From Malacoraja senta (lineage: Eukaryota), in assembly GCA_038087875.1 (NCBI GenBank), contig CM075990.1, positions 15,688,001 through 15,752,000 on the forward strand: a stretch of DNA of 64,000 bases, read 5' to 3'. Below the pieces are notes generated by a model. The model saw nothing but the letters and a program-made list of their open reading frames with translations, made no database searches and was not told where the DNA came from. The first letter of the stretch is position 1. Every line of letters starts with the position of its first letter. Below, one piece after another: positions 1-58,466 of this stretch. A program made the translations under genes and the position numbers.

Positions 1-74
1 TCTCCAGCATTTTTGTGTACCTTTGATTTTCCAGCATCTGCAGTTCCTTCTTTAACACTTTAACCCATTAACAT

Positions 75-214
75 CAGTCTGAAGAAGGGTCTCGACTCGA
101 AACGTCACCTATTAACATCAGTCTGAAGAAGGGTCTCGACCTGAAACGTCACCCATTCCTTTTCTCCAGAGATGCTGCCTGTCCCGCTGAGTTACTCCAG
201 CATTTTGTGTCTAA
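75..214 (+). mobile_element. Penelope-like element (PLE) pseudo-LTR fragment with two tandem minimal hammerhead motifs
   Basis: CTGAAGA...GAAACGTC at 79-106 and 123-150 (44-nt period), followed by the usual pLTR body. Flanked by direct repeat cattaacat (66-74 and 215-223). Confidence 0.75.
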
Positions 215-1186
215 CATTAACATGCAGGTAGGCTTTCAGCTTCAGACACCAGATCAGCCACTGGTTGATAGAAATGCAACTTGCCCAGTAACTTAATGAA
301 ATGGTGTTCCTTTAAGTACATTAATTGATGGCTATCAACTAAGCTGAAACAAAAGTGTGAGAGGAAACATGTTGCTTCCTGTGATGGATGGCCAGTTCAC
401 TTCAAACTAATGCATCCCACCGAAAACAATCACATTTGCCGTGTGCCTCAGTCACATCAAATGACGCAGATGTTGTTCTCCGGCTGGTCTGATCAATTTC
501 AGACCTCAGTGAGAGTCGATTTAATGGAACGTTACCATTACCTTTCTCTGAGGAATAAAACGTACTCCAGTCATCTGAAGGCTTCACTGATGAATTTACA
601 GTGTTGGCAGTCGGCAACTCCAACCCAAGGCAACCCTCCACACTTGCACTGTCAAACACCGGCTTCACTGGAATGGTTAATGGGTGTATCAGTTAATGGC
701 TTTGTCAGAATCCTGTTCTGTTTTGGTCTGAAGTGTGTGTATGAGATACTTATATGGCAGTAACATGACAGGTTAACTTACTGTGTCTGTATACTGCGGA
801 CGGTTTGATTGCAATCATGTATAGTCTTTTCACTGACTGGATAGCACGCAACAAACATGCTTTTCACTGTACCTCAGTGCACATGACAGTAATAAATTAA
901 ATCAAACTACTGGACTAGAAGCCAAAGTTCTGAACTAGTGCATCACAGACGAGTTCAAATCCAACCACAGATATTGAGGAGTATAAAGTTAGGTAATTTA
1001 TTAAATCTGGAACTTTAAGTGGCAGGAATGAAGTGACTGGATTTTTCAGAAACATCCATCTGGCGCACTCTATTTGAAAGTCAGCCATCCTGATTGGGTG
1101 TGGCCTATGTTACACCAGACCAATGTGGGCCGACACTGAACCGACTCTCCAAATCATGGCATTGTCACTGACATCCATATTCTGTG

Positions 1187-6714: not shown

Positions 6715-6846
6715 AATGCAATGCCACCACCAGTCACCTCTTCCCATCCCCACCCTTTCTGGTTTCCGCAGAGAACCTCCCTCCACAACTCCTTGGTTGA
6801 CTCATCTCTTTCTGCCCAAACCGTTCCCTCGCCGGGTACATTCCCC
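6715..6846 (+). mobile_element. Degenerate Penelope-like ORF fragment (linker before GIY-YIG)
   Basis: Translates, with a frameshift, to TTSHLFPSPP...SLHNSLVDSSLSAQTVPSPGTFP, which resembles vertebrate PLE proteins. Confidence 0.6.
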
Positions 6847-7300
6847 AGAGACCCGGGATCGATCCTGACTACGGGTGCTGTTTGTACGGAGTTTGAATGT
6901 TCTCCCCGTGACCTGCGTGGGTTTTCTCCAGGTGCTCCGGTTTCCTCCCACACTCCAGGTTTTAGGTTAGTTGGCTTGTAAATAAGCAACTTACACAATC
7001 TGGAGTTCAAAGTCATCTTTAATCTGTACACATTGTATAGCGGTACAGCAGGTTGTTAGTTGTTTGTTCATCGTTACCGCTTCCAAGTCTGACCAGTGTA
7101 GGAAGTGGGTGTTAGTATAAAGCATACAGTAAGGGGGGGTTAGTGATGCTATTTCTACTATGATTGGTTCACATGCAATAACCAATCTACAGCTTGATAG
7201 AAGATGTAAATTGTCCCAAATGTTAATGTCGCTGGTCGGGTCGGACACGGTGGGCCAAAGGGCCTGTTTCCGCGCTGTATCTCTGAACTGAACTGAGCTG
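6847..7300 (+). mobile_element. HE1-like V-SINE with an unrelated ~220-bp insert (6984-7204)
   Basis: SINE body 6847-6983 resumes at 7205 (tgtaaattgtccc) and ends in (ctgaa)n. Confidence 0.75.
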
Positions 7301-17625: not shown

Positions 17626-17843
17626 TGTAGGAAGGTACTGCAGATGCTGGTTTACACTGAAGATAGATACAAAATGCTGTAGTAACTTAGCGGGACAGGC
17701 AGCATCTCTGGAAAGAAGGATATATATGATACTTCAGGTCAAGACCCTTCTTCCTAGGGTCGAGACCCAAAACATCACCCATTCCTTCTCTCCAAAGATG
17801 CTGCTTGTCCCGCTGAGTTATTCCAGAATTGTGTGTCAATCTG
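17626..17843. mobile_element. Inverted PLE pLTR pair
   Basis: 10-bp TSD tggcctactc (17616-17625, 17844-17853). Confidence 0.78.
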
Positions 17844-20115
17844 TGGCCTACTCAGTACACAAGCCAGAGTCCTCTAGATACACAATGAAGATACACAATG
17901 CCCCCCATCCGTCACCACTCCAATGATGTTCTGGCAGGAAGCTGCTTCCATTCTTTTCAAATTTTCATTATCTTCATATTTAATAATGTGTGCAATGACA
18001 ATTGGCGCATCTCCACAGACCCAAACATAAGTCTGAAGAAGGATCTCGACCCAAAATGTCACCCATTCCTTCTCTCCTCAGATGCTGCCTGTCCCGCTGA
18101 GTTACTTCAGCATTTTTTGTCTACCTTCGGTGTAAACCAACATCTGCAGTTCCTTCCTCCCCAGACTTTTTGTGGAGCAGGTAACAGATGCAGGATTTAT
18201 TTAACCCAGCTCCATCTGAGACACGTTCTATTAAAAGTAAATTTGCCTTCTGACCAGACCCATCATTCAGCATAAGACTTGCTGGCCCCCATCATGATGT
18301 TCATTATCTATTTAATGGGTGCTGAGAATGAATGAGGAACCTAATCAGGGAGGCAGCTTTATCTCATTCGGTTGCAACAATGAATGATGATTCTGGATCT
18401 TTACTGTTGTTACAGGGCTGAGGTGCAGACACAGCAATCCAGTGTTTCCATCCATCAAAACTGCTTCCACAGTCAGTCATTCATCATCAGGACAAATGGC
18501 AACAATGTGACCTAAAGAATAATTGTATCTCTCTCGGATCACGATCCTCTGCATACTTAAGGATCAGCAAGACCTTCCTTAATCATTTACCTTTACAGGA
18601 GACATCTTCAAAGGATATTGCCCCTGTCTCTGCACAGAGAAGAGCAATGATTTAACAGGTAGCCCGAGAAGAAAGATGTGCATTTCTTTAGCTTTCTCCA
18701 CAATTTCCAACTGACTCCAAGTGGTTTAAACTAAATTTGGAACATAGCTGCTACATCTACCCAAGAAGGAACTGCAGATGCTGGAAAATCGAAGGTAGAC
18801 AAAAATGCTTCAGAAACTCAGCGGGTTTCGGCCCGATACATTGCCTATTTCCTTCGCTCCATAGATGCTGCCTCACCCACAGAGTTTCTCCAGCATTTTT
18901 GTCTACCACATCTGCCTCCCTTTAAGGGCCACGTGATAACACCCAGAGAGATGGAGACACAAGGACCTGCAGATGCTGGTTTACCAAAAATGACACAAAG
19001 TGGTGGAGTAACTCAGCAGGTAAGGTAACATCTCAGGAGAACATGGATAGGTAACATTTTGGATGGGGATTCTTCTTCAGTGACTGTGATTGACCAGGGC
19101 ACCAGCATCACATGCATCCACTTCGGGTCTGGCTTCACAGAAACCCTGGAACTTATTGGTTGCAATGATGTCTGGTGGGCAAGGAAAGCTCTTAATACTC
19201 AACATACTCTCCCAACACTGCCACCTGTGTGGGATCACACGCTCTCATTAAATTCTTAACAAGCTTACGTTAGATATCACATTGTAAACATGAAATTGAA
19301 ATTTGGTACTTATTCATTAAGTTGTACAAACAAGAAACTCTGTGACAAGTACTAAGATTGATTATGAATGTTTCCTAGTCTTCACTGTAAAGCAATTGCA
19401 ATGGTCTGTACCTTATTTCAGAAATATAATTGGATCTGAAGGTGTATTGCCGTCCAGTTGCGATCTGATCAGTGGTCATGGAATTGTGGTCATTCAACAT
19501 GGAAACAACTTCATCAGACCAATAGGTCCACAATGACGGCAAACACCCATTTCCACTGATTCCATTTTATTCTTCCCACATTCCCATTAACTACCTCCAG
19601 ATTCAACCACTCACTCACACCTGGGAAAGGGAATGTAGGCAATTCACCGAAAGCAGTTAACCAACAAACTCTCACTTCTGTGGGATGTGGGATGAAACTA
19701 GATCACACCGTCACGGGAGAGAAAGTGAAAACTCCACACGGGCAGCACGGGAAGTTAAGATTGGACCCAGACGACTGGAGCTGTGAGATAGAAATGCCAC
19801 TGTGCCACATAGTGCTGCCTCTGCCTGCTCCTTCTGAGTTCTACCACTGATGGATAGAAATGGTAGGACAGTTTAGCACTCTGTGAGTTTTGCAGTGAAT
19901 GCAGTGCACTCCAAATCATTTCCTTGCTCTCTGACAATCCAAAGCGGAATAACCTTTGCTTTAGGTTGAGATTTATTACTGCCTTGTGCACCGAGGTACA
20001 GTGAAAAGCTTTGCTATCCAAGCAGATCAGATAATACTATAACTTAAATACAATCAAGTCAAACTCAAGTACAACAGGTAGAACAAGGGGGAATACACTG
20101 GTGCAGAATATAGTT

Positions 20116-20300
20116 AGACAAAATTGCTGGAGAAACTCAGCGGGTGCGGCAGCATCTATGGAGCGAAGGAAATAGGCAACGTTTCGGCCCGAAACGTTGC
20201 CTATTTCCTTCGCTCCATAGATGCTGCTGCACCCGCTGAGTTTCTCCAGCAATTTTGTCTACCTTCGATTTTCCGGCATCTGCAGTTCCTTCTTGAACAA
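20116..20300. mobile_element. Near-perfect palindromic PLE pLTR pair (subfamily B)
   Basis: 72-bp arms 20116-20187 and 20189-20260 with one mismatch; 14-bp TSD tgcagaatatagtt (20102-20115, 20301-20314). Confidence 0.88.
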
Positions 20301-20915: not shown

Positions 20916-21903
20916 AGCGCGCGAGAGGGTGCGTGAAAGAGTGTGTATGAAAGAGTGTATAAATGTGTGAATGTGTGTGAGAGCGAGTCTGTATCTCTGC
21001 ATATTAGAGAGAGAGAGAGACGGCCGACCTGCCTCATACATTCATGCCACTGACATTATTCATGTTGCCAGTTATGTCAAATATATTAGATAAAGGTACA
21101 TTAAAATCATTATCATTAAAACATTATTTTAGTGCTAATATACCAGTACATTGCTCCTTAAAATCCACCATCGTTCTCATTAAGAATCCTTTTGAACACA
21201 CATTCACCGCCTCCATCCACCCCGTCACAATCTCTGCACAGCTCTGCTCTGTCCTTGGCAGTTCGTGCACGTATAAAATGCCTTGGTACAATTACAAAGT
21301 CCTCTCTGAATACACGCCTCTGCAAAAACGTCCACGCTTGCAACACGTTTCCTTTGCCAAAAGCTGTGCTCTGAAGAAAATGATACTTTTTGCTCTTCAT
21401 TAAATATTTACCACGCTCATCTTCAATGCAATTGCGGCCTTACATCATTCCGCATAGCCATAAATGGGATCGTTTTCAGGATTGTTTGAGTATCTTTAAT
21501 TAAGTGTTTAATCGACTGACGGCCTCAATTATCCCTCAAAAATCCTACTTCCAATCTTGGAATGAGCATGTTTAAAATTAACCTCTCCATTGTTTCAAAA
21601 CAATTTTGGACGTTAAGGATGGAACTTTTGACATCACGTTATAAGTGTCACAATAACAAAGCATTTTCATTGATTGCCACTCTAGGGACTGAAGCAAGAC
21701 AAACTATGAACAGGTAAGGTAAGCCAAACTCAACAGAACCCACTTTGGCTTCCAATATTTATTACTAATCTATTGCACCAGAAGCACCACAGATGCCTTA
21801 CAAGCCTAGTTTTACTCTACCTGAAGAAACAAGGAAGTGCTGATGCTGGTTTACTCGGTGGGACGGAGGGCCTGTTTCCGCTCTGTGTCCCTAAACTCAA
21901 CCC

Positions 21904-22556
21904 GAAACGTCACCTATCCATGTTCTCCAGATATGCTGCCTGACCCGCTGAGTTACTCCAGCACTCTGTGAAACGTCACCTATCCATGTTCTCCACAGAT
22001 GCTGCCTGACCCGCTGAGTTACTCCAGCACTCTGTGAAACATCACCTATCCATGTTCCGGCAGCATCTATGGAGCGAAGGAAATAGGCAACGTTCGGCCC
22101 GAAACCCTTCCGGGTTTTGGCCCGAAACGTTGCCTATTTCCTTCAGGGTTTCGGCCCGAAAGGTTGCCCATTTCCTTCGCTCCACAGATGCTGCCTGACC
22201 CGCTGAGTTACTCCAGCACTCTGTGAAACGTCACCTATCCATGTTCTCCAAAGATGCTGCCTGACCCGCTGAGTTACTCCAGCCCTCTGTGAAACGTCAC
22301 CTATCCATGTTCTCTAGATGCTGCCTGACCCGCTGAGTTACTCCAGCACTCTGTGAAACGTCACCTATCCATGTTCTCCAGAGATGCTGCCTGACCCGCT
22401 GAGTTACTCCAGCACTCTGTGAAACGTCACCTATCCATGTTCTCCACAGATGCTGCCAGACCCGCTGAGTTAGTCCAGCACTCTGTGAAACGTCACCTAT
22501 CCATGTTCTCCAAAGATGCTGCCTGACCCACTGAGTTACTCCAGCACTTTGTGTCT
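21904..22556 (+). repeat. 66-bp minisatellite (8 units) derived from a PLE pLTR, unit 3 interrupted by subfamily-B pieces
   Basis: Unit gaaacgtcacctatccatgttctccacagatgctgcctgacccgctgagttactccagcactctgt starts at 21904, 21970, 22036, 22225, 22291, 22355, 22421, 22487. Confidence 0.92.
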
Positions 22557-25517
22557 TTACTCTACCGGAACTGACTTTGGTGTTCGTCAGATGCTCTATG
22601 TTTCCTGTTGGACAATATTCCCCTCCCCCCCGTGCTGATGTGGCACAGTTTAGTTGTTCTCGGTTTAGATTTACATTGCAACACAAAATGAAATTTCTTC
22701 CCAAATATCGAACACTCTGTCTAGCTTGAAGAACAGAATTGAAGAGTGAGTGACGAGCAATGAATCCTTCAGCAGGAGTTCACGCCCCGTGCATCCATGG
22801 GGAAACCACTGCATTTTAGGATTGCAGCTTCTAACTGTGGGCTGCTGAGATGTTTGTGTCTTATAGTGATTAGAACTTCTTGACGATTTTTGTCGTGAGA
22901 ACTGTTGAGATTGGAATTTTGCAAAGCAGGTCAGGCACCTGCTTAAAAGTTGCACAGTGACACTGCCTCACAGCATCAGAGACCCTGGGTTCGATCCTGA
23001 CTCTCCCTGTGACCGCATGGGTTTTCTATCGAAAGACATGGTTAATTGGTATCTGTAGAATTGTCCCCAGTGCGTCGGATGCAAAAGTGGGATAACATAG
23101 AACTAGCCGAGCCAATTGATATTTTTAAGGCTGAGATAGATAGATTCTTGATTATTACCGGTGTCAGGGGTTATGAGAAGGAAGGAGAATGGGGTTGAGA
23201 GGGAGAGATGGATCAGCCATGATGGGTCGAATGGCATAACTCTGCTCCTATCACTTTTAAACTTAGTGTATGGACGATCGATGGTCAGCGTAGACTCAGT
23301 GGGTCGAAGAGCCTGTTTCTGCACTGTATTATTAAAAATAAGAATAAATACAAGGCTACCGTATGTGAGCTTAATAATTTGTTTTACGCCACACAAACAT
23401 CGATTCCATTCGACATGTTTAAAGAAGTTATCAAAGCTGCAACATTGGATTAATCCTTTACTATAAAAGGGTTAACATTGGCTGTTTCTCCTCCTCTTTG
23501 TGTCCTTGAGCCAAACTTGAAACTTTCTGCTATTTCAAATAGCTGCGGCTTGAAATATTACTCCAGTATCTGCACTAATTCAATGAATTAGTCTTCCTGT
23601 CACCTTTCTGCTTGACTCCAGACTGATACATCTGCAATAGGTCTCAGAGTCGATCTCCAGTAAATATAATAGCCGCAAGAAGATTATTCTGTGCCTGGTA
23701 CATTTTCAATATGATCTTCTAATTATTTTTGGTAAGGAACATTTCCATTATGTCCATATGTCCTGTGAAGGTCAGAAACAGCATTGATTGCATGTATCAT
23801 CCATCGACTGTGTATACATGTTTATTGTCCATGTTTGTGTTTCTATTTTGTCCCATTTCCAAACTGTGCAAGAACACTGCCAGACTCAAGACTTCTGTAC
23901 ACCAAGCTCATTTCTCCCGTACATCTATAGTTATCAGTGTACCTCTATCCGTCCTTGTACGACTGACAACTGCTGCCTGAGCTGAAGGCAGGTTCACCGA
24001 CTCAATGCGTACTGTGCAAAACCAATGAATTTCCCTTCCATGACCAGGGGGTTTGAAGGTCCAACGTTCAATGTCATTAATCATCAATTCTCAGATGATT
24101 TGTCAAAGAATGTCTCTAAAGTGCTTCGTTTTTATAGTCACTGGGACTCAACCAGTGGCTCTGGTAATGCTCGTCGCCAATTAAATAAGGCTTGCGAGGC
24201 AAAGCTTGTGGGGCTGGTGAGCGTTGTGCTTAATAATGGACACAGGTGCTGCAGATGTTGGAATCATTTTTTTGTCTGCCTCCCACTACTACCCACCGGC
24301 CTCACCCTCCCAACTCCCCCCCCCCCCCAACCTCCCCTACCTAACTCCTTCTGTCTATAATCCTTCACCTTCTTTGATCCACCAATCACCTCTGACTCCC
24401 AGTTTCACCACTCCCCTCTCCTTCTTCATCTAGAATGTGGTCCTGACCTCCCATCTACCTCAGGAGACCTGTGACCTATCTTAATTGGATTAGGACTTTA
24501 ATGTTATAACTTGTCTACATGACATCTATGCTTGATCACTTCGGACGCTTGTGTATCATATATGTCTTTCTATGATAGCATGACGCAAAAGTTCTCCACT
24601 CTGTCTCAGCACAGGTGACAATAATAAACTAAACCTCTTTATATTGGCTCTCATCCATCTCCATTCTCAGTCCTATGAAAGGTTTTGACCTGAAACATCA
24701 ACAGTTCCTTTCTCGCCACATCCACTGAGTTCCTCCAGCAGAATCATATGTTGCATTATCTCCATGGTGCAACAGGAGTTGTAGAACGTGTGCCAGCTCT
24801 TCGCTGAACACTAACATCAACTACCATGGCACATATATCATTACGTCATAGGCGAGTCAATCTTCTCATTCATTCGCAAGAATGTGGAAGTCAGTGGCAA
24901 CAATACTGTCATTTATTGTCCCAGAACAGTGGAAAGTGCACTAAAAATACCACTATTTTCATGCTTACAGTTATTGAGACTTCTTTTCTCTGTCCAAATT
25001 TTACGTAATTGCATTAATTTAGAGCCTTGCATATTTATATCAGATTACCAACATTTGCATATTTTGTTTTAAAGTTCTGTCACATCGCCTGCTCACCATC
25101 CACAAATAAAATAATCCTGAGTTACAAAATGAATTGAAAAAAAGCCTATCCACAAAGCATGAGAGGTTCAGACACAAACAACTGAAGCAGACCATGGCGG
25201 AATTATTTTTTTGATTCCAGTAGAAACGTGGAATATTTTCTCTGGAGCAAGTGGAAATAAACCCAAAACTATGGACAAGATTTATGACAAGGTTTAATGG
25301 CCAGGTTTAATCTTTTCACAAGTTCTAACTATTCTAATAGATAGCAAGTTACAAGCAACCTTTGAAATGTTTCTTGTACCTTCAGAAAAGGAGAGAAGAC
25401 TTCTCCCATGCATGAAAACATTGACCTATTTCTAACTCATTGAGCACTTTGAAACTTTTGAGAGTGAGTTGTAGGAAAATACAGCTACAACTTTTCTATT
25501 GTAACTATTTCTGTCTG

Positions 25518-26968: not shown

Positions 26969-27869
26969 AGAGAGAGAGGAAGAGAGAAAGAGAGAGAGGA
27001 AGAATGCTGGAGTAAGAGGTAGTTTCAACAAATAATGAGGTATCTTCAATGAATAAGACTATTTTAAAGTGTTTCTGACGCTTCTTCAATGTCAGTGCTG
27101 TAATGCAAGATTGCTGTGAATACTGCTAAAATAAATACTGCTTGGCCTCACATCAAGAAGCAAAGACTGCCAGTCAAATACTAAAAATCTTGTTAACGGC
27201 GGAGAATGTGCTGAAACAAAATTTATGTTTGAAACACGCAGACTGTGAAGGTTAGTGCACAAATTTAGACTGTGGTGTTATGTTTGAGCAAATTGATATC
27301 CGAGGGCAGTATGAGTACACTAAATCTACTGAGATAATAGCACTCCTCCAATCCTGGCCAAGTTGAGCATTCACGGTTTACATCCTTCCACTCTTCATGC
27401 CCATTCCATCTGCCCACTCCTCCACCCTCCTCTTCCGAAGCTCCATAAACCTTACCTCCTTGACCAAGCTCTCTGCTACATGCCCTAACATTTAAATATA
27501 CAACTTGGTGTTAACCCCTTTCATTCATTTCATTCCTCTCAAGCTGCTATGACATTTTGATTCATTAAAGTTGCTGTGGAAGATTTTGTCATTGTTGAAG
27601 TCCATCCGTGGCTTTACAGCACAGAACAGTAAAGTACAGGAAGTTATATTTTTGGCTCTTAATGTCAATACTGAACCTGTAGCCAAGTTAAATTAATCTC
27701 TCTCTGCCTGCACGTGATCCATATCTCTCAATTCCGTGCATATACATCTGCCAATCTAAAAGCCTGTTAAATGTCACTATCATATCTGCCTCCACAACCA
27801 TCCCTGGTAGTATGTTCCAGGCACCCTCCACTCTCTGTGTAAAGTAACCTACCCTGCACATCTTTAAAC

Positions 27870-27963
27870 GTCTGAAGAAGGGTTTCGGCCCGAAACGTTA
27901 CCTATTTCCTTCGCTCCATAGATGCTGCTGCACCCGCTGAGTTTCTCCAGCATTTTTGTGTAC
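27870..27963 (+). mobile_element. PLE pLTR subfamily B with an intact hammerhead-like motif
   Basis: ctgaaga-a-gggt-ttcg-gccc-gaaacgtt at 27872-27899; 11-bp TSD catctttaaac (27859-27869, 27964-27974); sits inside an old minus-strand CR1. Confidence 0.82.
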
Positions 27964-29717: not shown

Positions 29718-31454
29718 ATTCTGATCGACAGTGGCTTCACAGTGGCTTTACTTTGACAGGTGCCTAACTGTCAAAGTATGGATGTGTGGATGAGCGATGT
29801 TTTGGGAGGGGACAAAGTCCGTTAATCAGTCTTATTGCCTGTGGGAAGAAGCTGAGGAGCATCCTGCTGGTTTTGCAGCTGAGGCTCCTGTACCTCTTCC
29901 CAGATGGCAGAATGGAAAAGATGTGATGTGATGGTTGGTGGGGGTCCTGGATGATGGAGATGGCTCTACTGATGCTCCTCTTCTTGTATATCTCCAGCAG
30001 GAAAGGGAGTGGGGCACCGATAATCCTGCTGGCGGTCTTCACTATCCTGTTTAGTTGATATTGTTCGTAAGCCTTGCAGCTCCCGAACCAGGAAGTGATG
30101 CCGTAGGTTATTATGCTTTCAATTGTGCCCCTATAGAAGGTTCTTAGATGGGCAGTGGGGAGACCTGCTTTCCGAAGTCTCCGGAGAGGGTGGAGTCGCT
30201 GTTGGGCTCTTTTGACCACTGCTGTGGTGTTGGTCATAGAGGTCAGGTCATCCGACAGGTGGAGTCCTAGGAACTTCACACTGCTGACCCTCTCCACAGC
30301 AGTTCCATCAATATACAGCGGTGTATGGTGTTGTTTTATCGCCCTCCTGAAGTCGACCACCATCTCCTTAGTTTTTCCCACATTAAGAGTGAGGTTGTGG
30401 GATCTGCACCATCCTGTGAGCAGCTCCACCTCCATCCTGTACGCCGACTCATTATTGTCGCTGATGAGACCCACCACTGTTGCGTCATCAGCGAACTTGT
30501 TGATATAGTTGTTATTGAGTCTAGCAGTACAGTCATGTGTAAGCAGACTAAACAGCAGGGGGCTTAGGACACAGCCTTGGGGTGAGCCAGTGCTCACGGC
30601 GATGGTTTGTGATGTCCGACTGCCCACCCTGATTGTCTGCTGCCATTGTGATAAGAAGTTAAGGACCCAGTTACAAGTGCCAGTATCCACCCCTAACAGC
30701 CTCAGCTTCTCCACCAGCTGCTGTGGAATGATTGTATTAAAAGCAGAGCTGAAGTCTAAAAAGAGGATCCTGGCATAAGTATTTTTCCGGTCGAGGTGCG
30801 ACAGTGCAAGGTTCAGTGTAGTGGAGACTGCGTCCACTGTGGACCGGTTGGCTCTGTAGGCGAACTGCAGTGGGTCTAGGTCGGCAGGGAGACAATTTTT
30901 TATATGCTGCATAACCAGCCGTTCAAAACACTTCATTAGTATGGGCGTAAGAGCCACTGGGCGGAAGTCATCGTGACAGGCTGGGTTTGGTTTCTTCGGG
31001 ACAGGAACGATGGTGGCACTTTTAAGACAGTTGGGCACTACTGCCTGGCTGAGTGAGATGTTAAAAATGTCTGTGAAGACATCTTTTAGTTGATCAGCAC
31101 AGTCCCTTGAAACGCATCCAGGGATGTTCTCCGGCCCTGCAGCTTTGCGTGGATTGATGCTGGCAAAGGCCTTTTTAACTCCGGCTGTGGACAGCCTGAG
31201 TGACTGGTCGCTGGGTGATGGCAGGAGTGCTCGTATCTGGGTGGTGTTTTTAACCTCAAACCGTGCATATAACTCGTTCAGTTCATCTGGTAGAGTGGGG
31301 TCGTTTTGGCATATCTGCAGCGAGGGGGGGGCTTGTAGTCAGTGATGGTATGAAATCCCTGCCACAAGCGACGTGTGTCTTTGTCGTTTGTGAAGTGGCT
31401 ATTCAGTTTTTGTACATACCGCCTCTTCGCTTCCCTGATCCCCCGGGATAGGTT
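29718..31454 (-). mobile_element. 5'-truncated Rex1/Babar-clade LINE
   Basis: 12-bp TSD atgaaaa(c/t)agtc (29706-29717, 31455-31466) around an RT reading frame. Confidence 0.88.
29764..31323 (-). CDS. Reverse transcriptase domain and C-terminus of Rex1/Babar LINE (partial)
   Basis: Open frame containing [57 protein letters not shown]. It continues upstream across a frameshift in the G run at 31324-31331. Confidence 0.9.
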
Positions 31455-38832: not shown

Positions 38833-39456
38833 CTTTATTACCGATATTGACAATGATGGAAAACATTCGGCAGCAAAACATGAATGAAAAACAAGAGAGA
38901 CATAAAAAAATGTTTTGGGAAACCTTTCCTTGCGATCCAGCCAGCAGTTGTGGACAATAAATAAGATGTGTCCATGGCTGCCCTTTTGAGATGAACGTGA
39001 TTTTTCAAATTGTTTGCATCAAAAAAAAATATATCAATGATCTCTGCCAAACGGAAATGTAATCACAAAGACTCACTTGGGAACCAATCTACGTGCCACT
39101 TCTCTGTCTGCACCTTGGGACTCCAAGAGAATGATGCCTGTTGCCAGCTACCTGTTGCTGGAGCAACTTAACCCGCTCCGAGCCTGCAGCAGAATAGGTC
39201 AATGCTGGTGACCTCCAAGACGTGGGAGGTCAGCGCACATCCATCTGAATGGCAGCGTGGTGGGTGGGAGCAGAGAGGGGTGAGTGGACATATGATGGAG
39301 CTCTCGAGTCTGCTCTGAGCTGATCGACGCACTGCTCCCATGGGTGGAACCAGGACAATGGTTGTGGGTGATTCTCTCAACAAAGGCAACACGAGGAACA
39401 ACATTTCTATACAATAGGCATCTAACGGTGGACTCCCTGATGAGTTATGAACACAA

Positions 39457-39643
39457 GGTAGACAAATTGCTGGAGAAACTCAGCGGGTGCAGCAGCATCT
39501 ATGGAGCAAAGGAAATAGGCAACGTTTCGGGCCGAAACGTTGCCTATTTCCTTTGCTCCATAGATGCTGCTGCACCCGCTGAGTTTCTCCAGCATTTTTG
39601 TCTACCTTCGATTTTCCAGCATCTGCAGTTCCTTCTTAAACAC
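39457..39643. mobile_element. Palindromic PLE pLTR pair (subfamily B)
   Basis: 15-bp TSD gagttatgaacacaa (39442-39456, 39644-39658); centre gtttcgg-g-ccgaaac. Confidence 0.88.
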
Positions 39644-42427: not shown

Positions 42428-42817
42428 AGGGCAGTCACTGTGGCACAGCGGTAGAGTTGCTGCCTTACAGTGCTTGCAGCGCCGGAAACCCAGGTTCGGT
42501 CCTGACTACGGGTGCTGTCTGTACGGAGTTTGTACATTCTCCCCGTGACCGCATGGGTTTTCTACGAGATCTTCAGTTTCCTCCCACACTCCAAAGACGT
42601 ACAGGTTTGTAGGTTTAGGAAGGAACTGCAGATGCTGGAAAATCGAAGGTAGACAAAAATGCTGGAGAAACTCAGCGGGTGAGGCATCAGTCTGAAGAAT
42701 GGTTTCGACCCAAAACGTTGCCTATTTCCTTCGCTCCATAGATGCTGCCTCACCCGCTGAGCTTCTCCAGGTTTGTAGGTTAATTGGCTTGGAGTATGTG
42801 TAAATTGTCCCTAGTGT
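42428..42817 (+). mobile_element. HE1-like V-SINE interrupted by an inverted PLE pair (42616-42767)
   Basis: A-box-like tggcacagcgg and B-box-like ggttcggtcc; insert TSD caggtttgtaggtt (42602-42615, 42768-42781). Confidence 0.85.
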
Positions 42818-44448: not shown

Positions 44449-44685
44449 AATAGTCCTTCCATAAACTAGGGTACTGTCTGATTCACCTCTAACCCATTGT
44501 GGACATTGGACTTTGTCTATGGAACTGGTGTGCCACAATGCTGAAAACTATATTCTGCAGTCCGTATCTTCCCCTCGGTTCTATCTATTGTACTTGAATT
44601 TGACGTGATTTTATTTACATATAGTATAATCTGATCTGTAGGAAGGAACTGCAGATGCTGGTTTATACTGAAGATTGACACAAAA
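44449..44685 (+). repeat. 237-bp direct duplicate of 46818-47054
   Basis: Appears identical by eye and includes the junction between two different repeats (Rex-like 3' UTR and PLE pLTR). Confidence 0.92.
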
Positions 44686-45061
44686 AATAAAAAATTGAGG
44701 TCGGGTAAGGGGGGATGATAGTTGAAGAGTTGGTATGTCCTATTTACGTGATGCTCAAAAAAAAAAAACATTTGTTTTTCTTTTTTTCTCTCTCTCTTTT
44801 CTTTTCTTAGGGCCTATTTCTTAACTCTTTTTCTTTTTGTTTTTAATTTCGCTCTCATAGGGTCCTCGTCCTTTTTTTTTGTTGTTACATTTTCTACACT
44901 TTTCTACACTTGCACTTTTTCCTTCACTTTCTTCTCTCTTTCAATCTTTTCTTTCTTTAGTGTAAAAAAAAAAAAATAAAGGGAGTACATTAATTGTAAG
45001 AAGATATAAATGACGAGTATTAATGTATGTGGCTGTGATGTAATGTACTTCTAATATATAA

Positions 45062-45419: not shown

Positions 45420-45664
45420 CTAACTTCAGATAGCCCTTGCTTTCTCTCTCCATCCCCTTCCCAGTTCTCCCACTAGTCTAACTGTCTCCACCTACATTCT
45501 GTCTGTGTCCCGCCCCCTCCCCTGACATCAGTCTGAAGGAGAGTCTCGACCCGAAACATTGACCATTCCTTCTCTCCAGAGACGCTGCCTAACCCACTGA
45601 TTTACTCCAGCATTTTGTGTGTACCTTCGATCTAAACCAGCATACGCAGTTCTTTCTTACACAC
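45420..45664 (+). mobile_element. PLE 3' end (ORF stop, 3' region, pLTR)
   Basis: Colinear with 50681-50932. Confidence 0.85.
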
Positions 45665-46215: not shown

Positions 46216-47006
46216 GTGTACGTATGCATAAGTTCTGTATGTGAGTTGTGTTGTTGAACCACCTGAAGGCTTGACGAAGAAAAACGTAGAGGATTCTCGT
46301 TCCCCATCTACAAAGTAATGATCCCCCTGGGGTCATCGAATATAACTGCATGCAAGCTAAACAGCATCTCCATGCTGGAGCCTTCCTCATCTCTGGACGC
46401 TCCGAGATAACATTGGGTCAATTCAACCCCTTTGTGCTGGAAGGACAAAGCCAGGAAACGAGCAAAAGCCATGGCTCTGGAAGGAATTGCAAAATGTCAG
46501 TCAATCAATGATAAGTGAAATGACTGACGGTTTTGGCATCTGATGGATATCAGGGCAGCAGCAGCTCATCCAGCTTCAGTGATTCCTGACATGCAGGACA
46601 CCAGAGCTTATTTCGAAAGGTCATTCGGCAAATCCAGGATATCATGATGGAGGCATCACCTTTCACACAGACTCCTGAAAGGTAACTCACACTCTGTTTC
46701 CATTAAACTAGCGGGGGTCAATTTTCCCAAAATAAACTCAAACCAAATTATATTAATTGAGAAATAAGCCAAAAGAAAAATAAAATCTATTATCAGGCTT
46801 CTGTTATCAGTCTTCTGAATAGTCCTTCCATAAACTAGGGTACTGTCTGATTCACCTCTAACCCATTGTGGACATTGGACTTTGTCTATGGAACTGGTGT
46901 GCCACAATGCTGAAAACTATATTCTGCAGTCCGTATCTTCCCCTCGGTTCTATCTATTGTACTTGAATTTGACGTGATTTTATTTACATATAGTATAATC
47001 TGATCT

Positions 47007-47400
47007 GTAGGAAGGAACTGCAGATGCTGGTTTATACTGAAGATTGACACAAAATCCTGGAGTAACTCAGCGGAACAGGCAGCATCTCTGGAGATAAGGA
47101 ATGGGTGACGTTTCGGGTCGAGACCCTGCTTCAGACTGAGAGTCAGGGGAGAGGGAGACAGAGATATGGAAGGGTAAGGTGTGATCAAAGGGCACGATGA
47201 TCAAGGACAATGGAGAATGGTTCATTGCTAGCTGAGGGGAAGATGATGGCAAGGCATACAATCGGTAAAATTTAATCAGGAGGACAGTGAAACTAGTCGG
47301 AGAACTAGGATGGGGGAGGGATGGAGAGAGAGGGAAAGCAAGGATTACTTGAAGTTAGAGAATTCAACATTCATGCCGCTGGGTTGTAAGCTGCCCAAGC
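47007..47400 (-). mobile_element. PLE 3' end
   Basis: Minus strand encodes LGSLQPSGMNVEFSNFK-stop, then 3' region and pLTR. Confidence 0.85.
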
Positions 47401-47675: not shown

Positions 47676-50040
47676 TAGGGTCCTCCCACCAGGAGACTCA
47701 CAGGGGGGTGGGCCCGGTGTTACAGCCTCTCTAACACTACACTGATGTATTTTTGAAGTTGGAACCAGGAGCGCCTCAATGAATGTAGATAAAGCATGGA
47801 GATTTTAATAAAGAAACTACAGATGCTGGAATCTCGAGCAAAAAACAAAGCACTGGACAAACTCAGCAGGTCAGGCGGCATCAGCGGAAGAAATGGACAG
47901 ACGACAATTAAAGTCGAACCCCTCTTCAGACTGATAAATGCATGTCCAATGGTATTTATTGTACCTATTATGAATAAAGTCTATTTATAGAACAATAAGT
48001 GGGTGCCACAATCGCTGTGATGAATCGGGAACATTCCTTTATTCTTGTCACCAGCACCAATTAAAGAAATTAACCTGAAATTCTCACACTGTTCTTTCTT
48101 GGGATTTACTGTGTGCCACTTGCCTGAAGCTTCCCTACATCTCAGTCGTGACTAAAATTCAATAGTTCCTCAATTTGGGACAAGCAAAGGTCAAGAAAAA
48201 TGTTATCTAAATCTCAGTTCTCAGCAACCTCCAGGACAAAGCACATTTTGCATGTGCAAGATTTGATAATGCTGGCGTGATATTGCAGACAAACAACTAA
48301 AAACAAAAATATATCATATATAATCAGGATTCTTTAATTTAAAGATAGAGCATGGAAACATGTCTTTCAGCCAACTGGGTCCGCACCAACTAGTGATCAC
48401 CTGTTCACACTAGCTCAACGATATCCCATTTTTACATCCACCGTACAATTTACAGAGGCCAATTAACCCACAAGCACGTTTGGGATGTGGGAGGAACCCA
48501 GAGCATTCTGAGGAATCACATATGGTCACAGGGAGAATGTGCAAACTCCACACAGGCACCCGAGGTCAGGATCGAACCAGGTCTCTGGCAGCTGCTTTAC
48601 CAGCACGATTTAAAGTTGAACTAATTGTGCAACCACCTATTCATCACCCAGATAATAACATCAATTCATAAGTGCTATCCAAACCTAAGCTCACTGTTGG
48701 AAAAATGTTACAATGCTGTACTGGTTATAACTCAGGAAACCCTCAGCAGTGAATGTTAGGGTCCAATTCTACAGGTCAGGTGAAAACCCCAAACCGATTT
48801 AATGGGACACTTGACCTTGAGCTTCCAACCATATGCATGTCCTGTGGCCAGGCTGAAATGAGCACCTCGTCAGAATAATTTATTTCTTGAGCAATCGTGT
48901 AGACGGAGTGTTCTTTACAACTGAGTGTTCCCCTGGCTTCTATAATGCATAATAAAGAGGCAGTAATTAATCAAGGGAAGATCAGTGGTGAGACATTCTC
49001 CGTCATGGTAATAATTTCTCATCAAGAAGACTGTTTCTTCAGCCCAGTGTGAATGAGTTTGATTGTTTGCGATCTATGAACCATTTTGCTATGGAGCCAC
49101 CTCAATGTAGCCGGGAATGGGGATCATTCATGGCAACAATTGCCCGCAGGTTCCATCGCCATCACTGTCCAGTGGAAAAAGGCCAAGGCAATAGCTTCCC
49201 GCACACTGGGGACTGATCATCACCAGCTGAGATGAGAGTTTATCAACCTCAGAGCTGGCATGATACTCATGATCCACCGTGCACTCCTACATACTTCTGA
49301 GATCGGGACTACGCACATCAGGCACCTTCTGGGTCGAGGCCCTTCTTCAGACTTGACCTGCAACGTCACCCATTCCTTCTCTCCAGAGATGCTGCCTGTC
49401 CTGCTGAGTTTCTCCAGCATTTTGTGTCTATCTTCAGTGTAAACCAGCATCTGCAGTTCCTTACACCTTCAAGGGACTGCTGGTGCTGGAATCCTGAGCA
49501 AAAAAAACAAACTGATACAGATACTCAGTGGATCAGGCAGCATCTGGGAAATGTGCAGATGACATTTCAAGTTGGACTCTTTCTTCTTCACAGGAATTAC
49601 ACTTTAGGTTGGGGTCACCCATCAGTCTGAAGCAAAGTTCTGACCCGAAGCATTGTCTGTCCAGTTCCGCCCCACTGATGCTCCCTGACCCATTCCTGCA
49701 GCAACTTGTTATTGGCATCACTGATAGCCTCAGAAAAAATCTCCAGGTTCACTAGAAGGAACAGCAATGTTCTCTCTCAAGCATTAATATTAGAGTCACA
49801 CTCAGTTCCCTCTGGGCAGACTGCATCACTCGCATGCCCAACAACAGGCCCTTAAAACAGTCAGATTCTATTCTGAGCTGTCTTGGGAAGACAGAAGATC
49901 AGATTTCAGGGAGTGTTCAATTCTCCTTGGAGAAATGCATCATTCTCATTGACTCGAAGGGATCTCGGTCTCATAACCATTCAAAGTGAAGGAGAAGAAC
50001 GAGGGATGGTTTGTGAGCCTTGAGGCCTGGAGCACACAGT

Positions 50041-50326
50041 AGGCGGCATGGTGGCGTAGCCAGAGACCCGGTCCGATCCTGTCTACGGGTGCTTGTCTGT
50101 ACGGAGTATGTGCGTTCTCCCCGTTACCTGCGTGGGTTTTCTCTGAGGTCTACGGTTTCCTCCCACACTCCAAAGACATACAGGTTTGTAGGTTAATTGT
50201 CTTGGTATAAATGTAAAATTGTCCCTTGTGTGTGCAGGGTGGTGTTAATGTACGGGGATCGCTTGTCAGTGCGGACTCGGTGGGCCGAAGGGCCTGTTTC
50301 CGTGCTATATCTCTAAACTAAACTAA
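50041..50326 (+). mobile_element. HE1-like V-SINE
   Basis: Head ggcggcatggtggcgtagc, V domain, (ctaaa)n tail. Confidence 0.85.
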
Positions 50327-50391
50327 GAAGCACTGCATAAGCTGCAAACGGAGGTCACCACCTCGCACACTGCCATCATCTCCTCCAACAC

Positions 50392-50932
50392 CTCCTCCAA
50401 CCTCATTGACTGCATCTGTTGTTCCAGGTGTCAACCCCTGTACATCAGCAAGACCAAGCGCAGACTCGCGATCGTGTCGCTGAACACCCCCGCCCAGTCC
50501 GCCTTAACCTACCTGATCTACCGGTTGCTCAGCATGTTAACTCCCCCTCCCATTCCCAATCTGACCTTTCTGTCTTGGCCCTCCTCCATTGTCAGAGTGA
50601 GGCCCAGCACAAATTGGAGGAACAGCACCCCACATTTCGCTTGGGCAGTTTACACCCCAGCGGTATGAACATTAACTTCTCTAACTTCAGATAGCCCTTG
50701 CTTTCCCTCTCTCTCTCCATCCCCTCCCCCTTCCCAGTTCTCCCACCAGTCTTACTGCATCTGACTACATTGTATCTCTGTCCCACCCACTGCCCTGACA
50801 TCAGTCTGCAGAAGGGTCTCAACCAGAAACGTCACCCATTCCTTCTCTCCGGAGATGCTGCCCGTCCCGTTGAGTTACTCCAGGTTTTTGTGTCTACCTT
50901 CGATTTAAAGCAGCATCTGTAGTTCTTTCCTA
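50392..50932 (+). mobile_element. Penelope-like retroelement 3' portion: GIY-YIG endonuclease remnant and pLTR
   Basis: SSNLIDCICCSRCQPLYISKTKRRL-(frameshift)-DRVAEH...PVAQHVNSPSHS...KLEEQH..FRLGSLHPSGMN, stop at 50694, then a hammerhead-like motif at 50806-50833 and the pLTR body. Confidence 0.9.
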
Positions 50933-51169
50933 GAGAGCTTATTTGTCTTTTTTGCTTTATGCTGGCACTCATGAAACCTCTGCTGAATTGTGGTGATCTT
51001 ATCCCAGCTAAAGGCCGTTATCAATCACAGAGCAACTTGAAAGGAAATGATGAATGAAAACCTTACTTCAGCGTAATCTTGTGATTGACATCCCATTAGG
51101 GCCCATTCATTGGAAAGTGAACCTAAAACGTCACACACGTGACCAGTCCTGTTCGACCCCTTACCCTAA

Positions 51170-52564: not shown

Positions 52565-52878
52565 GGGGGCGGCATGGTGGTGCAGCGGTAGAGTTGCTGC
52601 CTTACAGTGCCAGAGACGTGGGTTGGATCCTGACTACGGGTGCTGTCTATATGGAATATGAACGTTCTCCCCATGACCCGCTCGGGTTTTCTCCGGGTGC
52701 TCTGGCTTCCTCCCACACTCTAAAGACGTACAGGTTTGTAGGTTAATTGGCTTCGGTAAAATTGTAAATTGTCCCAAGTGTGTGTGGCTTAGTGTTAACG
52801 TGCGGGGATCGCGGGTCGGTGCGGACTCGGTGGGCCGCAGGGTCTGTTTCCGCGCTGTATCTCTAAACTAAACTAAAA
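52565..52878 (+). mobile_element. Full-length HE1-like tRNA-derived V-SINE
   Basis: A-box-like tggtgcagcgg, B-box-like ggttggatcc, V domain gttctcccc..gggttttctccgggtgctctggcttcctcccac, CR1-like 3' end and (ctaaa)n. Confidence 0.88.
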
Positions 52879-54110: not shown

Positions 54111-56111
54111 ATAGAAACATAGAAACATAGAAATTAGGTGCAGGAGTAGGCCATTCGGCCCTTCGAGCCTGCACCGCCATTCAATATGATCATGGCTGAT
54201 CATCCAACTCAGTATCCCGTACCTGCCTTCTCTCCATACCCTCTGATCCCTTTAGCCACAAGGGCCACATCTAACTCCCTCTTAAATATAGCCAATGAAC
54301 TGGCCTCGACTACCCTCTGTGGCAGAGAGTTCCAGGGATTCACCACTCTCTGTGTGAAAAAAGTTCTTCTCATCTCGGTTTTAAAGGATTTCCCCCTTAT
54401 CCTTAAGCTGTGACCCCTTGTCCTGGACTTCCCCAACATCGGGAGCAATCTTCCTGCATCCAGCCTGTCCAACCCCTTAAGAATTTTGTAAGTTTCTATA
54501 AGATCCCCTCTCAATCTCCTAAATTCTAGAGAGTATAAACCAAGTCTATCCAGTCTTTCTTCATAAGACAGTCCTGACATCCCAGGAATCAGTCTGGTGA
54601 ACCTTCTCTGCACTCCCTCTATGGCAATAATGTCCTTCCTCAGATTTGGAGACCAAAACTGTACGCAATACTCCAGGTGTGGTCTCACCAAGACCCTGTA
54701 CAACTGCAGTAGAACCTCCCTGCTCCTATACTCAAATCCTTTTGCTATGAAAGCTAACATACCATTCGCTTTCTTCACTGCCTGCTGCACCTGCATGCCT
54801 ACTTTCAATGACTGGTGTACCATGACACCCAGGTCTCGCTGCATCTCCCCTTTTCCTAGTCGGCCACCATTTAGATAATAGTCTGCTTTCCTGTTTTTGC
54901 CACCAAAATGGATAACCTCACATTTATCCACATTATACTGCATCTGCCAAACATTTGCCCACTCACCCAGCCTATCCAAGTCACCTTGCAGTCTCCTAGC
55001 ATTCTCCTCACAGCTAACACTTCCCCCCCAGCTTAGTGTCATCAGCAAACTTGGAGATATTGCCTTCAATTCCCTCATCCAGTTCATTAATATATATTGT
55101 AAATAGCTGGGGTCCCAGCACTGAGCCTTGCGGTACCCCACTAGTCACTGCCTGCCATTGTGAAAAGGACCCGTTTACTCCTACTCTTTGCTTCCTGTTT
55201 GCCAGCCAGTTCTCTATCCACATCAATACTGAACCCCCAATGCCATGTGCTTTAAGTTTGTATACTAATCTCTTATGTGGGACCTTGTCGAAAGCCTTCT
55301 GGAAGTCCAGATACACCACATCCACTGGTTCTCCCCTATCCACGCTACTAGTTACATCCTCGAAAAATTCTATAAGATTCGTCAGACATGATTTACCTTT
55401 CGTAAATCCATGCTGACTTTGTCCAATGATTTCACCACTTTCCAAATGTGCTGCTATCCCATCTTTAATAACTGACTCTAGCAGTTTCCCCACTACCGAC
55501 GTTAGACTAACTGGTCTGTAATTCCCCGTTTTCTCTCTCCCTCCCTTCTTAAAAAGTGGGGTTACGTTTGCTACCCGCCAATCCTCAGGAACTACTCCAG
55601 AATCTAAAGAGTTTTGAAAGATTATTACTAATGCATCCACTATTTCTGGGGCTACTTCCTTAAGTACTCTGGGATGCAGCATATCTGGCCCTGGGGATTT
55701 ATCGGCCTTTAATCCATTCAATTTACCCAACACCACTTCCCGACTAACCTGGATTTCACCCAATTCCTCCAACTCCTTTGACCCGCAGTCCCCTGCTATT
55801 TCCGGCAGATTATTTATGTCTTCCTTAGTGAAGACGGAACCAAAGTAGTTATTCAATTGCTCCGCCATATCCTTGTTCCCCATGATCAACTCACCTGTTT
55901 CTGACTGCAAAGGACCTACATTTGTTTTAACTAATCTCTTTCTTTTCACATATCTATAAACACTTTTGCAGTCAGTTTTTATGTTCCCTGCCAGTTTTCT
56001 TTCATAATCTATTTTTCCTTTCCTAATTAAGCCCTTTGTCCTCCTCTGCTGGTCTCTGAATTTCTCCCAGTCCTCCGGTATGCTGCTTTTTCTGGCTAAT
56101 TTGTACGCATC
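54111..56111 (-). mobile_element. Young 5'-truncated CR1-clade (HER1-like) LINE
   Basis: Tail (atgtttct)n; inserted in a Rex-like 3' fragment whose halves (53985-54110, 56112-56245) rejoin as in 57530-57705. Confidence 0.93.
54209..56109 (-). CDS. CR1 ORF2 reverse transcriptase (partial, one frameshift)
   Basis: [68 protein letters not shown]. The two track ORFs join at the 7-C run 55023-55029. Confidence 0.93.
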
Positions 56112-58466
56112 ATAACGTTTAGTGCAAGGTAAAGCCAGCAAAGTCCGATCAAGGATGGTCCGAGGGTCACCAATGAGGAAGATAGCAGTTCAGGACTGCT
56201 CTCTGGTTGTGGTACGATGATTCAGTTGCCTGTTAACAGCTGGAAAGTTTGAGGTGGTGCATTGGTTTTCCATGTAGTTCTGATGCATATACTTCCAACA
56301 CCATCTACTGCTATAGTAAACCAGGAGATGTGTTCAACAGATATGGAGAAGGTGATGCAAACCATTTAATCTCATGACAGCAGGAACTAAATGCTTGGTG
56401 GTGGTGTATCTGTGGCATTTATTGCCACAGAGGCTGTGGAGGCCAAGTCAACAGATATTTTTAAGGCAGAGATAGTTTCTTGATTAATATGGGTGTAAGG
56501 GGTTATGGGGAGAAGGCAGGAGAATGGGGTTAGGCGGGAGAGATAGATCAGCCATGATTGAATGGCGGGGTTAGACTTGATGGGTCGGATGGTGTAATTC
56601 CGGTCCTATCACTTATCAACTTGCTGCAATAAATTAAAATGCTGAAATTATTTGGTGATGGATTCCAAAAATGACATAGAGTGGGTTTTAAAGGCTCGGG
56701 CCCAAATGTTATGCGTACCTCGATTTGGCAGCATTTTAGTAATGTCACAACTCATTTAGGTTAGGAAAGTATTTGTCAAGTGTTGGTAAGATATCTGGCA
56801 GAGTTCCTGATGGACAAAGTGCTCTGTCAACAGCTCGACAGTACACTGACTCAAGACAGATTTTTAGCAATGTACTGGAGTCGGAGAAGGGACTTGCTGG
56901 AACTTGCTAACAGGTGCAGTCTGGCAGCAGGTGGGCTAATAAAAGATGGTCAAAATAAACCAACTGTGTGTGTTCAGGAAAGGCAAGAGAAGAAGAGCTT
57001 AAATATGGCTCCTGACTCAAGCACTAAGATTAGAAACTGAGAGCAAGCCCAGAGGACACATGGTTCTTGACTGATATGAATAATCAGCACAAGCTGGAAG
57101 TGGCACTGGTGCATGCCCATACATAACTTTTATTTGGAAACATGAGAAAATTTAAATGCATGTTTAACGTGACTGACTAGTTGCATCATGGCTTTTTATA
57201 GGAATTCCACCACCTAGAATCGCAAGGGGATGCAGAGAGGGGGTAGACTCAGCCCGGTTCATCACCGGCACAGCCCTCCCCACCGTTGGAAGCATCTGCA
57301 GGAGTCTCTGTCATCAAGGATCCTCACCCTCTGAGCCTTGCCATCTTCTTGCTGCTACCTTTGGGCAGGTGTAACAGAAGCCTGAAGTCGCACACTTGGA
57401 ACTGCTACTTTCCTTCAACTATCAGGTTTTTAAACCAACCTGCACAACCCTAATCCCACCTCGACAACAGAACACTCAACGTTCCACATCTACAGTTTCC
57501 TGTGACCACAAAACCTGTCCTGGTTTTAAATTTAGTTTAGTTTAGCTTATTGTCGCGTGTACCGAGGTAGAGTGAAAAGCTTTTTGTTGCGTGCTAACCA
57601 GTCAGTAGAAAGACAATACATGATTACAATCGAGCCATTTACAGTGTATAGCGACATGATAGAGGAATAACATTTTCGCAAAAGGTAAAGGCAGCAAAGT
57701 CCGCTTTTAATTAAATTTAAATTAATGCAAGGGCAAGGTCATAGTGCAAGATAATAGCATTGCGTTGAAAGATCAGCCATGACCTTGATGAAAGATGGAG
57801 CTCAAAGGGCCAGTTAACCTACTCCTGTTCCAAAGTCTTATGTTCACATGTGGTGAAGCCAACCCAGAGTTCATTGGAAAAGACATCATGATCAATTGTT
57901 ACTGCACAAGAACAAATTCAGACTCGCAATGTGTACAGTGACTGAGGATGCTGATCACAAGTTTATGGGGCAATTTCTCGGACGATAATTCTGATGGCAT
58001 GTTATGAAAAAGCAGCAATTTTGCAGTTCAGATGATGCATTTGTTTAGCAATATGTACAAAATAAATCCATCTAGCGGAGAGCCTGTCATTTAAATTTCA
58101 TTCCATTGGGTTTCGCCTCATGTCCCAACCAACATTGCAAATGATGTTCCAGCCTCTCCTCCAAATACTTCACTGCACAATACTAAGTGTGACTATTCCA
58201 CAATGGATTTCATCTTGCAATAACAATGTCTTTTGTCTGCTTGACAAGTTATTAAAATAATTGTCTATTTTCTCTTATAACATGAGTGTGAAAGTTTTTA
58301 TTATATGGGCTCAAACTGCCAATAAAATTTATTTTTTTGCAGCAAAAATAATCAGGCCATTCAGCCCATCAAATCAATGCTGGATCCCAGTATAGCACTC
58401 TCTTGAGTACCATTCACCGATCCTGCTTGGAGTTCATTTGCTGCTCTCTTAAATATATACCCTCTT

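Follow-up and report, generated by a model that had tools for sequence, protein, structure and literature searches.

A short repeat of about 130 bp that recurs throughout a 64,000-nt stretch of the genome of the skate Malacoraja senta (hereafter the window, meaning the whole stretch that was analysed) very probably forms the module at the 3′ end of a highly abundant Neptune-type Penelope-like element (PLE) of skates or rays, for which a model of insertion and of ribozyme dimerization is proposed below. Comparison with related sequences supports the view that the head of this module is, in the master element, a minimal type I hammerhead ribozyme of the kind already published for PLEs. The repeat is real and was correctly classed by the original prediction, and it is not new: its anatomy falls wholly within the set published in 2014.

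An abundant repeat behind a PLE endonuclease

An nhmmer profile made from nine window copies of the repeat detected 63 copies or fragments, which occupy 5,506 bp (8.6%) of the 64,000-nt window at about one copy per kilobase, and found nothing in each of five shuffled windows. Segments lying wholly outside the repeat reach a self-BLAST depth of at most 11, and depth rises to 23 and 35 in two segments of which about half falls within it; the statement that this is the most abundant short repeat, with more than 25 copies, is thus borne out. The unit consists of a 28-nt hammerhead head, a body of about 70 nt and an optional tail of about 35 nt. Mean divergence from the subfamily consensus is 9% in subfamily A (23 copies) and 7% in subfamily B (10 copies); subfamilies C (5 matches) and D (10, mostly from one array) have too few members to give dependable consensuses. 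CpG decay has affected G12 and the palindrome in the window copies, almost all of which are decaying relics. The repeat had also been called a pseudo-LTR, a term that strictly denotes a direct repeat on both sides of a full ORF. The window holds only 5′-truncated copies, and a related metagenome contig (L020) carries a 357-nt direct repeat at both sides, with a hammerhead head at each end, in each of the two flanking repeats. Apparently intact PLE ORFs of about 900-940 codons lie at L020:1-3513 and in a second metagenome contig, at L006:1-3018.

At the locus from which the prediction started, the repeat follows a decayed piece of a GIY-YIG endonuclease (Table 1), and the Penelope-like origin is upheld by its homology to PLE proteins of a shark (49-59% identity to residues 288-388 of the zebra-shark protein P0154, tblastn E 1e-22) and of skates (68-75%). 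A Pfam search on the GIY-YIG pieces of the window themselves returned no match; the homologs score 18.9-24 bits against the Pfam GIY-YIG model, with only P0002 above the cut-off of 22.6. Reverse transcriptase (RT), expected upstream in the ORF, is absent from the 5′-truncated locus, and the RVT_1 matches of the homologs P0155 (E 0.008) and P0156 (E 7e-5) both stay below the cut-off. The CX3-4CXXC linker between RT and endonuclease is found in the homologs P0002, P0016, P0155 and P0156, and the locus starts behind this linker. Since neither a full-length element nor its RT was found within the window, the clade rests on the homologs, and the name Neptune, as opposed to Nematis, is the label in Table S1 of PMC4209133 rather than the outcome of a tree. 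The protein search with P0001 was dominated by its LINE-derived N-terminal part, the useful match being P0016, and a search of viral contigs for relatives found none.

The prediction placed the repeat directly behind the end of a GIY-YIG ORF at three loci, a description that needs amending in two respects. The head lies 111 nt behind the ORF end at the 50390 locus, 99 nt at 45420 and 210 nt at 47400-47005 on the minus strand, the interval being a pyrimidine-rich 3′ UTR in each case, and is therefore not directly adjacent to it. Of the three, only the ORF end at 50390 is detectable at the protein level, whereas the loci at 45420 and 47400 keep only 3 and about 18 codons, respectively. Close to the latter, 44639-44720 repeats 46970-47055 (minus strand) almost identically at a distance of 2.4 kb, a small segmental duplication that includes the tail of the 47005 copy.

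Table 1. Coordinates of the endonuclease remnant, of the parts of the 3′ module and of further copies in the window
Feature	Position	Strand	Details
GIY-YIG endonuclease, C-terminal ~100 codons	50390..50694	+	5′-truncated, decayed, in two frames; frameshift near 50468 (family contigs carry one more base behind 50467)
Stop codon of PLE GIY-YIG ORF	50692-50694	+	
Pyrimidine-rich 3′ UTR	50695..50805	+	ends in CTGACATCAGT, the last 2 nt being the helix I 5′ arm; shared with 45434-45532 at 80%
Minimal hammerhead head, mutated	50806..50833	+	A6, loop II, position 11.1 and a further base of stem II changed
3′ module body	50834..50900	+	ends near TTTTGTGTCTACC, the first of the two points at which copies stop
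Optional ~35-nt PLE tail	50901..50932	+	second 3′ end point
Copy with 44-bp head tandem duplication	63..218	+	intact heads 79-106 and 123-150; 8-bp flanking duplication
Solo subfamily-B copy	27866..27962	+	intact head 27872-27899, UUCG loop, GUU site; 11-bp target-site duplication; begins 2 nt upstream of core
Copy with 3 ORF codons and stop	45420..45659	+	3′ UTR, decayed head, tail
Copy with ~18 ORF codons	47005..47400	-	210-nt 3′ UTR, A9 changed in head, tail
Head-to-head pair	20098..20294	.	folded back at stem II palindrome, tail on one arm; also 39444-39638
66-bp tandem array of head-less fragment	21896..22562	+	starts at GAAACGTC; without CTGAAGA and stem II; inverted piece inside

No host gene was found in the window (0 Pfam matches in 51 ORFs). 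A 524-codon open frame at 29764-31338 (minus strand) matches RVT_1 and ALKBH8_N in Pfam and encodes a LINE-type RT unrelated to the PLE, and two overlapping frames at 54209-56189 (minus strand) encode another LINE RT (RVT_1 match), which we take to be CR1-like. A SINE-like repeat with about 8-11 copies (50040-50326, 5363-5480, 6845-6957, 52577-52876) presumably resembles the HE1 SINE of sharks and rays; two PLE copies (5487-5594 and 42616-42782) lie within it or directly beside it. Elsewhere, the public skate gene models P0001, P0002, P0004 and P0016 contain PLE endonuclease pieces (among them a myocardin isoform and an RTP3-like protein), probably as annotation chimeras or through exonisation. 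Animal-type PLE fragments with a hammerhead also occur in two contigs of bacterial metagenome-assembled genomes (L083:1529-2441, minus strand, and L084:308-1048), where they are probably host contamination.

A minimal hammerhead at the head of the repeat

The predicted head is present and reads CTGAAGA-A-GGGT-(CTCG/TTCG)-(A/G)CCC-GAA-ACGT-(C/T). The core elements CUGANGA, GAAA and UH occur in all four subfamily consensuses and in four window heads, and the extra A said to follow the core is likewise found in all four consensuses. The copies described as cleanest, at 79, 123 and 27872, are indeed three of only four full-core heads, but those at 79 and 123 derive from one local 44-bp tandem duplication; the fourth lies at 1312 on the minus strand and has lost 1 nt in stem II. 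Helix I, given as 2-3 bp, measures 2 bp in all four intact heads and never 3. The head at 50806 itself does not keep the CUGANGA/GAAA/UH core, since A6 has become C; its stem II is disrupted as well. Contigs of the family were assembled from four public runs of three organisms and mapped onto 50330-50990. At 50809 they have A (85-97% of depth), at 50821 G and at 50825 mostly C, and the family therefore has an intact core; contig depth carries no information on copy number.

Rearranged heads are also seen. At 2635-2723 there is a 34-bp tandem of mutated heads whose unit might extend from ATCAGT as far as the cut site, but ACATCA/ACGTCA microhomology accounts for this period too. The array at 21896-22562 comprises about ten 66-bp units and includes a 34-bp duplicated subfamily-B head (22056-22225). 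At 17756-17770, CGAG replaces CTCG as the stem II loop in one arm of a head-to-head pair; this inversion suggests a template switch within the stem. The tandem at 63-157 formally resembles the non-LTR retrozymes (Li et al., bioRxiv 10.64898/2026.07.22.740005) in that each unit has a complete head. It extends over only 2.2 x 44 nt, however, and a local duplication is its most plausible origin; the core is missing from the long array at 21904-22553, and the heads at 2635-2723 are mutated.

The check proposed with the prediction, that the core be more conserved than its flanks, came out as not clearly so: non-CpG core positions show 15 mismatches in 301 and the body 179 in 2,200 (p=0.065), in a count that dropped seven matches (array units and one segment duplicate) and 13 unassigned fragments. 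These counts thus give no clear sign of selection on individual window copies, as would be expected of relics. Between the four subfamily consensuses, 0 of 11 core columns differ vs 26 of 65 body columns (C and D being thin). From C3 to 1.1, the consensuses of A and B show four differences, all of them tolerated: a loop base, two kept G-U wobbles and a C to U change at H17.

Further evidence comes from relatives. Among 80 related metagenome loci, recovered with an alignment of three longer homologs, 15 were testable (having 400 nt or more of sequence past the endonuclease), and the strict motif occurs on the sense strand, 75-300 nt behind the endonuclease end, in three of these, or in six if decayed palindromes are counted; the antisense strand gave 0/15 and shuffles gave 0, and nine of the 15 have no motif within 800 nt. 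Two of four pattern matches in a genome collection also lie behind PLE fragments. In 11 aligned heads, which represent about five independent families and include one (L081) found by a pattern forcing part of stem II, 91.9% of the cells are paired, compared with 11-42% in slid-register controls, and 14 cells have changed on both sides, a value as high as which was reached in 0 of 500 shuffles. Changes on both sides occur at all three helix I pairs: pair 2.1-1.1 is formed in 11 of the 11 heads (UA, AU, GC) and 2.2-1.2 in nine. Stem II is paired throughout (100%), with G10.1-C11.1 as GC in nine heads and GU in two, and the palindrome 15.2-16.2 is CG in ten heads and TG in one; its window form is ACGT, and ATAT and AGCT exist in other relatives. 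The skate family and the coral-type Neptune relatives are moreover colinear in the body (50834..50900) and the tail, sharing CT(C/G)AGTT, TTTTGTGT and CAGCA..CAGTT. One shark gene model runs on through the 3′ UTR, and its protein terminates with SLMKGLRPKRQ; on back-translation, this peptide would fit the same head with U at N7.

The assignment to the minimal type I hammerheads thus stands, with the same motif behind the GIY-YIG end of relatives and with compensatory changes in helices I and II. Given that the motif is short and that Rfam finds no hammerhead, a chance match may be considered, but it is highly improbable: distant relatives carry the motif in the equivalent position and show compensatory changes, and it is also in the published set. 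The claim of a second ribozyme class in the window fared worse. No ribozyme family is among the 21 Rfam matches of the window at E<=5, a rough descriptor of our own found no HDV-like ribozyme in it, and a relaxed hammerhead scan of it yielded three plus-strand heads and one doubtful match at 20379 (minus strand); as no first class was found, a second could not be confirmed.

Nor is there support for calling the head ‘ultra-minimal’ in the sense of going beyond known forms. Cervera & De la Pena (2014, PMC4209133) described minimal hammerheads of PLEs in which helix III and loop 3 are missing and which have a conserved extra base, G10.1-C11.1 and a palindromic 15.2-16.2, with the consensus NNN CUGANGAH G..C GAAAN-palindrome-NU H NNN. 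The loopless ACGU, the extra base after A9 and the 2-bp helix I are all in that paper: by our own count of its Fig. S3, 29 of 56 rows have a loopless CG palindrome and six a 2-bp helix I, and Culex quinquefasciatus combines loopless ACGU with a 2-bp helix I. Compared with that set, the skate head, with a 2-bp GU/AC helix I and a 4-bp stem II, lies at the weak end of the published range. It shares features given there for the Neptune element of Acropora digitifera (a 4-bp GGG-N stem II, a tetraloop, the extra A, ACGU and a GUC site) but differs in helix I, which is 3 bp in the coral (GCU/AGC) and 2 bp here (GU/AC), and at N7, which is C in the coral and A here. Loci recovered with the shark PLE protein carry the Acropora motif together with the colinear body and tail. 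Table S1 and Fig. S3 of the 2014 paper include no cartilaginous fish.

Proposed dimer cleavage and its alternatives

As ACGU without a loop forms no normal helix III in one molecule, cleavage most likely needs two heads. In the proposed mechanism, the ACGU palindromes of two heads would pair over 4 bp to build a helix III between them, and the paired heads would then be cut after GUC or GUU, probably aided by the protein of the element. Cleavage as a dimer is the likeliest mode by analogy with known cases, the obligate dimer of the original prediction being an extension of the same analogy, and we consider it slightly more probable than not that dimers cleave in vivo. Small PLE-linked hammerheads with a diminished stem III cleave as dimers (Lunse, Weinberg & Breaker, RNA Biol 14:1499, as cited in the review PMC6765202), and, as reported in PMC4209133, a minimal hammerhead was inactive as a monomer and weakly active as a dimer or trimer. 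Folding predictions are unfavourable: in context, the predicted probability of stem II is at most 0.06 in seven of seven window heads, vs at least 0.5 in five of ten relatives, and for the tandem at 63-157 the double-hammerhead fold is predicted at +2.1 kcal/mol vs -21.1 kcal/mol for the minimum-energy fold. If these predictions hold, protein help would be needed for cleavage. A purpose-built ‘off’ hairpin, in which the core pairs with the body, was considered and rejected, because shuffled bodies suppress stem II equally (106, 79 and 75 of 200 shuffles gave values at or below the observed one); the suppression stems from the pyrimidine-rich composition of the body and is not special.

Two other fates of the motif have to be weighed against dimer cleavage. 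The motif may have descended from a PLE hammerhead, have ceased to cleave and be kept as a promoter piece or protein-binding site, a reading that is possible although we lean against it. The 2-bp helix I, the predicted loss of stem II to competing folds in context and the 5′ ends of copies, which lie away from the cut site, would all agree with it, as would an initiator-like TCAGT just upstream followed by ACGT about 30 nt on, given that the internal promoter of Penelope includes RGACGTGY as a downstream element (Schostak 2008). Hammerhead cleavage was also dispensable for insertion in vitro in the anole PLE, where hammerhead mutants had no effect and the cut site did not appear among the ends of RNA-seq reads (PMC11167929). 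Yet such a reading does not sit well with a core that is invariant across subfamilies and with A/B changes that are all compatible with the structure, nor with pair 2.2-1.2 being G-C here and C-G in the coral-type family, and TCAGT is absent in the coral-type relatives. The downstream promoter element itself was discarded as uninformative: four of five letters match, in two registers, and a 4-of-5 match is common by chance. Alternatively, a single head might cleave as a monomer, with the PLE protein clamping the A15.1-U16.1 pair. The anole element, the one purified PLE, cleaved only with its protein (PMC11167929), and almost all genomic copies here are single; on the other hand, the minimal motif of S. 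mansoni was inactive as a monomer and showed some cleavage as a dimer or trimer (PMC4209133), and the 15.1-16.1 segment stays palindromic while it varies (ACGT, ATAT, AGCT), a property required for a dimer but not for a clamp. Monomer cleavage is accordingly judged quite improbable.

Insertion junctions and the biology of the element

The ends of the copies bear on how the element inserts. Their 3′ ends form two clusters about 35 nt apart, at profile columns 100-120 and 135-142, with 22 of the 63 matches ending in the latter, and among the loose ends listed for the mapped contigs some lie behind 50932 in three of the four runs. At the other side, many 5′ ends are concentrated 2-8 nt ahead of the core, away from the cut site. 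Among 56 scored copies, 16 begin at -8 to -2, two at -9 to -100 and 35 inside or behind the head, the other three being ORF-linked references (5′ boundaries depend on three upstream references). Solo copies at 114, 1320, 4570, 5594 and 27866 have 8-11-nt flanking matches (target-site duplications) and start about 2-4 nt upstream of the core, blurred by microhomology. In the mapped contigs, 50803 and 50804 are among the top loose ends listed in the three larger runs, 50803 also in the fourth, and the cut site at 50834 is absent from the best-supported loose ends, a minority of the total, that are listed for each of the four.

Fifteen head-to-head pairs have their tail on exactly one arm in 12 cases, on neither in three and on both in none (P=0.012 if the arms are independent; some tailless arms are merely short). 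The arms are usually 70-140 nt long and meet inside or beside the hammerhead. Several junctions fall on head palindromes, for example two within the stem II region (20188 and 39531) and one at TCAG-T-CTGA (41974). Adjacent inverted copies also occur in the relatives L001, L027 and L068. The pairs at 20098-20294 and 39444-39638 are near-perfect palindromes of about 200 bp (68 and 66 of 70 matches) that would give long double-stranded RNA if transcribed; microRNA-like Rfam matches at 20134 and 39488 are spurious and correspond to these head-to-head pairs.

Much of this has precedents. The anole PLE (PAc, of the Poseidon clade) has two internal RT start sites that define an optional tail of 30-40 bp (Frangieh 2024, PMC11167929). 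The skate element shares with PAc the optional tail from two 3′ end points and the hammerhead in the repeat, but it belongs to a different clade, and in PAc the ORF starts inside the hammerhead, whereas here only truncated ORFs are present and the element is known from sequence. Neptune and Nematis EN+ PLEs are described as having 5′ truncation, an adjacent inverted truncated copy and a tail often at one end (Craig 2021, PMC8557442); all three are seen here, as is the CX2-5CXXC linker (in the homologs), while the usual length of both pair arms, 70-140 nt, and their meeting in or beside the hammerhead set the skate copies apart. No published account was found of skate PLE hammerheads, or of 5′ ends piling up before the core, in a search that largely left subscription papers aside.

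By our model, reverse transcription would start at one of two internal sites and would usually stop after 100-140 nt, just 5′ of the hammerhead. The initiator-like TCAGT, 3 nt upstream of the core, has its A at 50803, and RNA synthesis beginning at this base could explain the 5′ ends; they could also be due to stalling or a template switch at the palindrome, or to the existence of a short master copy. Developing the RNA start further, the short copies could be run-off (‘strong-stop’-like) cDNAs that mark it, combined with twin priming, a tentative and rather doubtful proposal. The element RNA would then start at TCAGT with the hammerhead as its first 31 nt; helix I could for this reason have at most 3 bp, and cleavage would cost the RNA its cap. 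Using the two internal start sites, a dimeric protein would carry out priming on both target strands, and the two cDNAs would become joined at the hammerhead palindromes, giving pairs with one tail. A short master copy is the basis of a further reading, which we regard as unlikely, in which the 130-bp unit is a non-autonomous SINE-like family and does not arise when reverse transcription of the long element ends early: only five of the 56 scored copies reach more than 8 nt upstream of the core, and several short copies have 8-11-bp target-site duplications. Against such a family speak the 5′ ends, which vary from -8 to +18, the presence of the same short form in several subfamilies, the longer ORF-end copies that share the same module and the pairs that join arms of different length.

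The repeat family thus adds a cartilaginous-fish member to a ribozyme class described in 2014, and its value is modest and mechanistic. With its many insertion junctions, the points where PLE reverse transcription starts and stops, as well as the role of the PLE hammerhead, could be read from the copies. Should the run-off proposal be true, the copies would map both the RNA start and the twin priming of a Neptune element.
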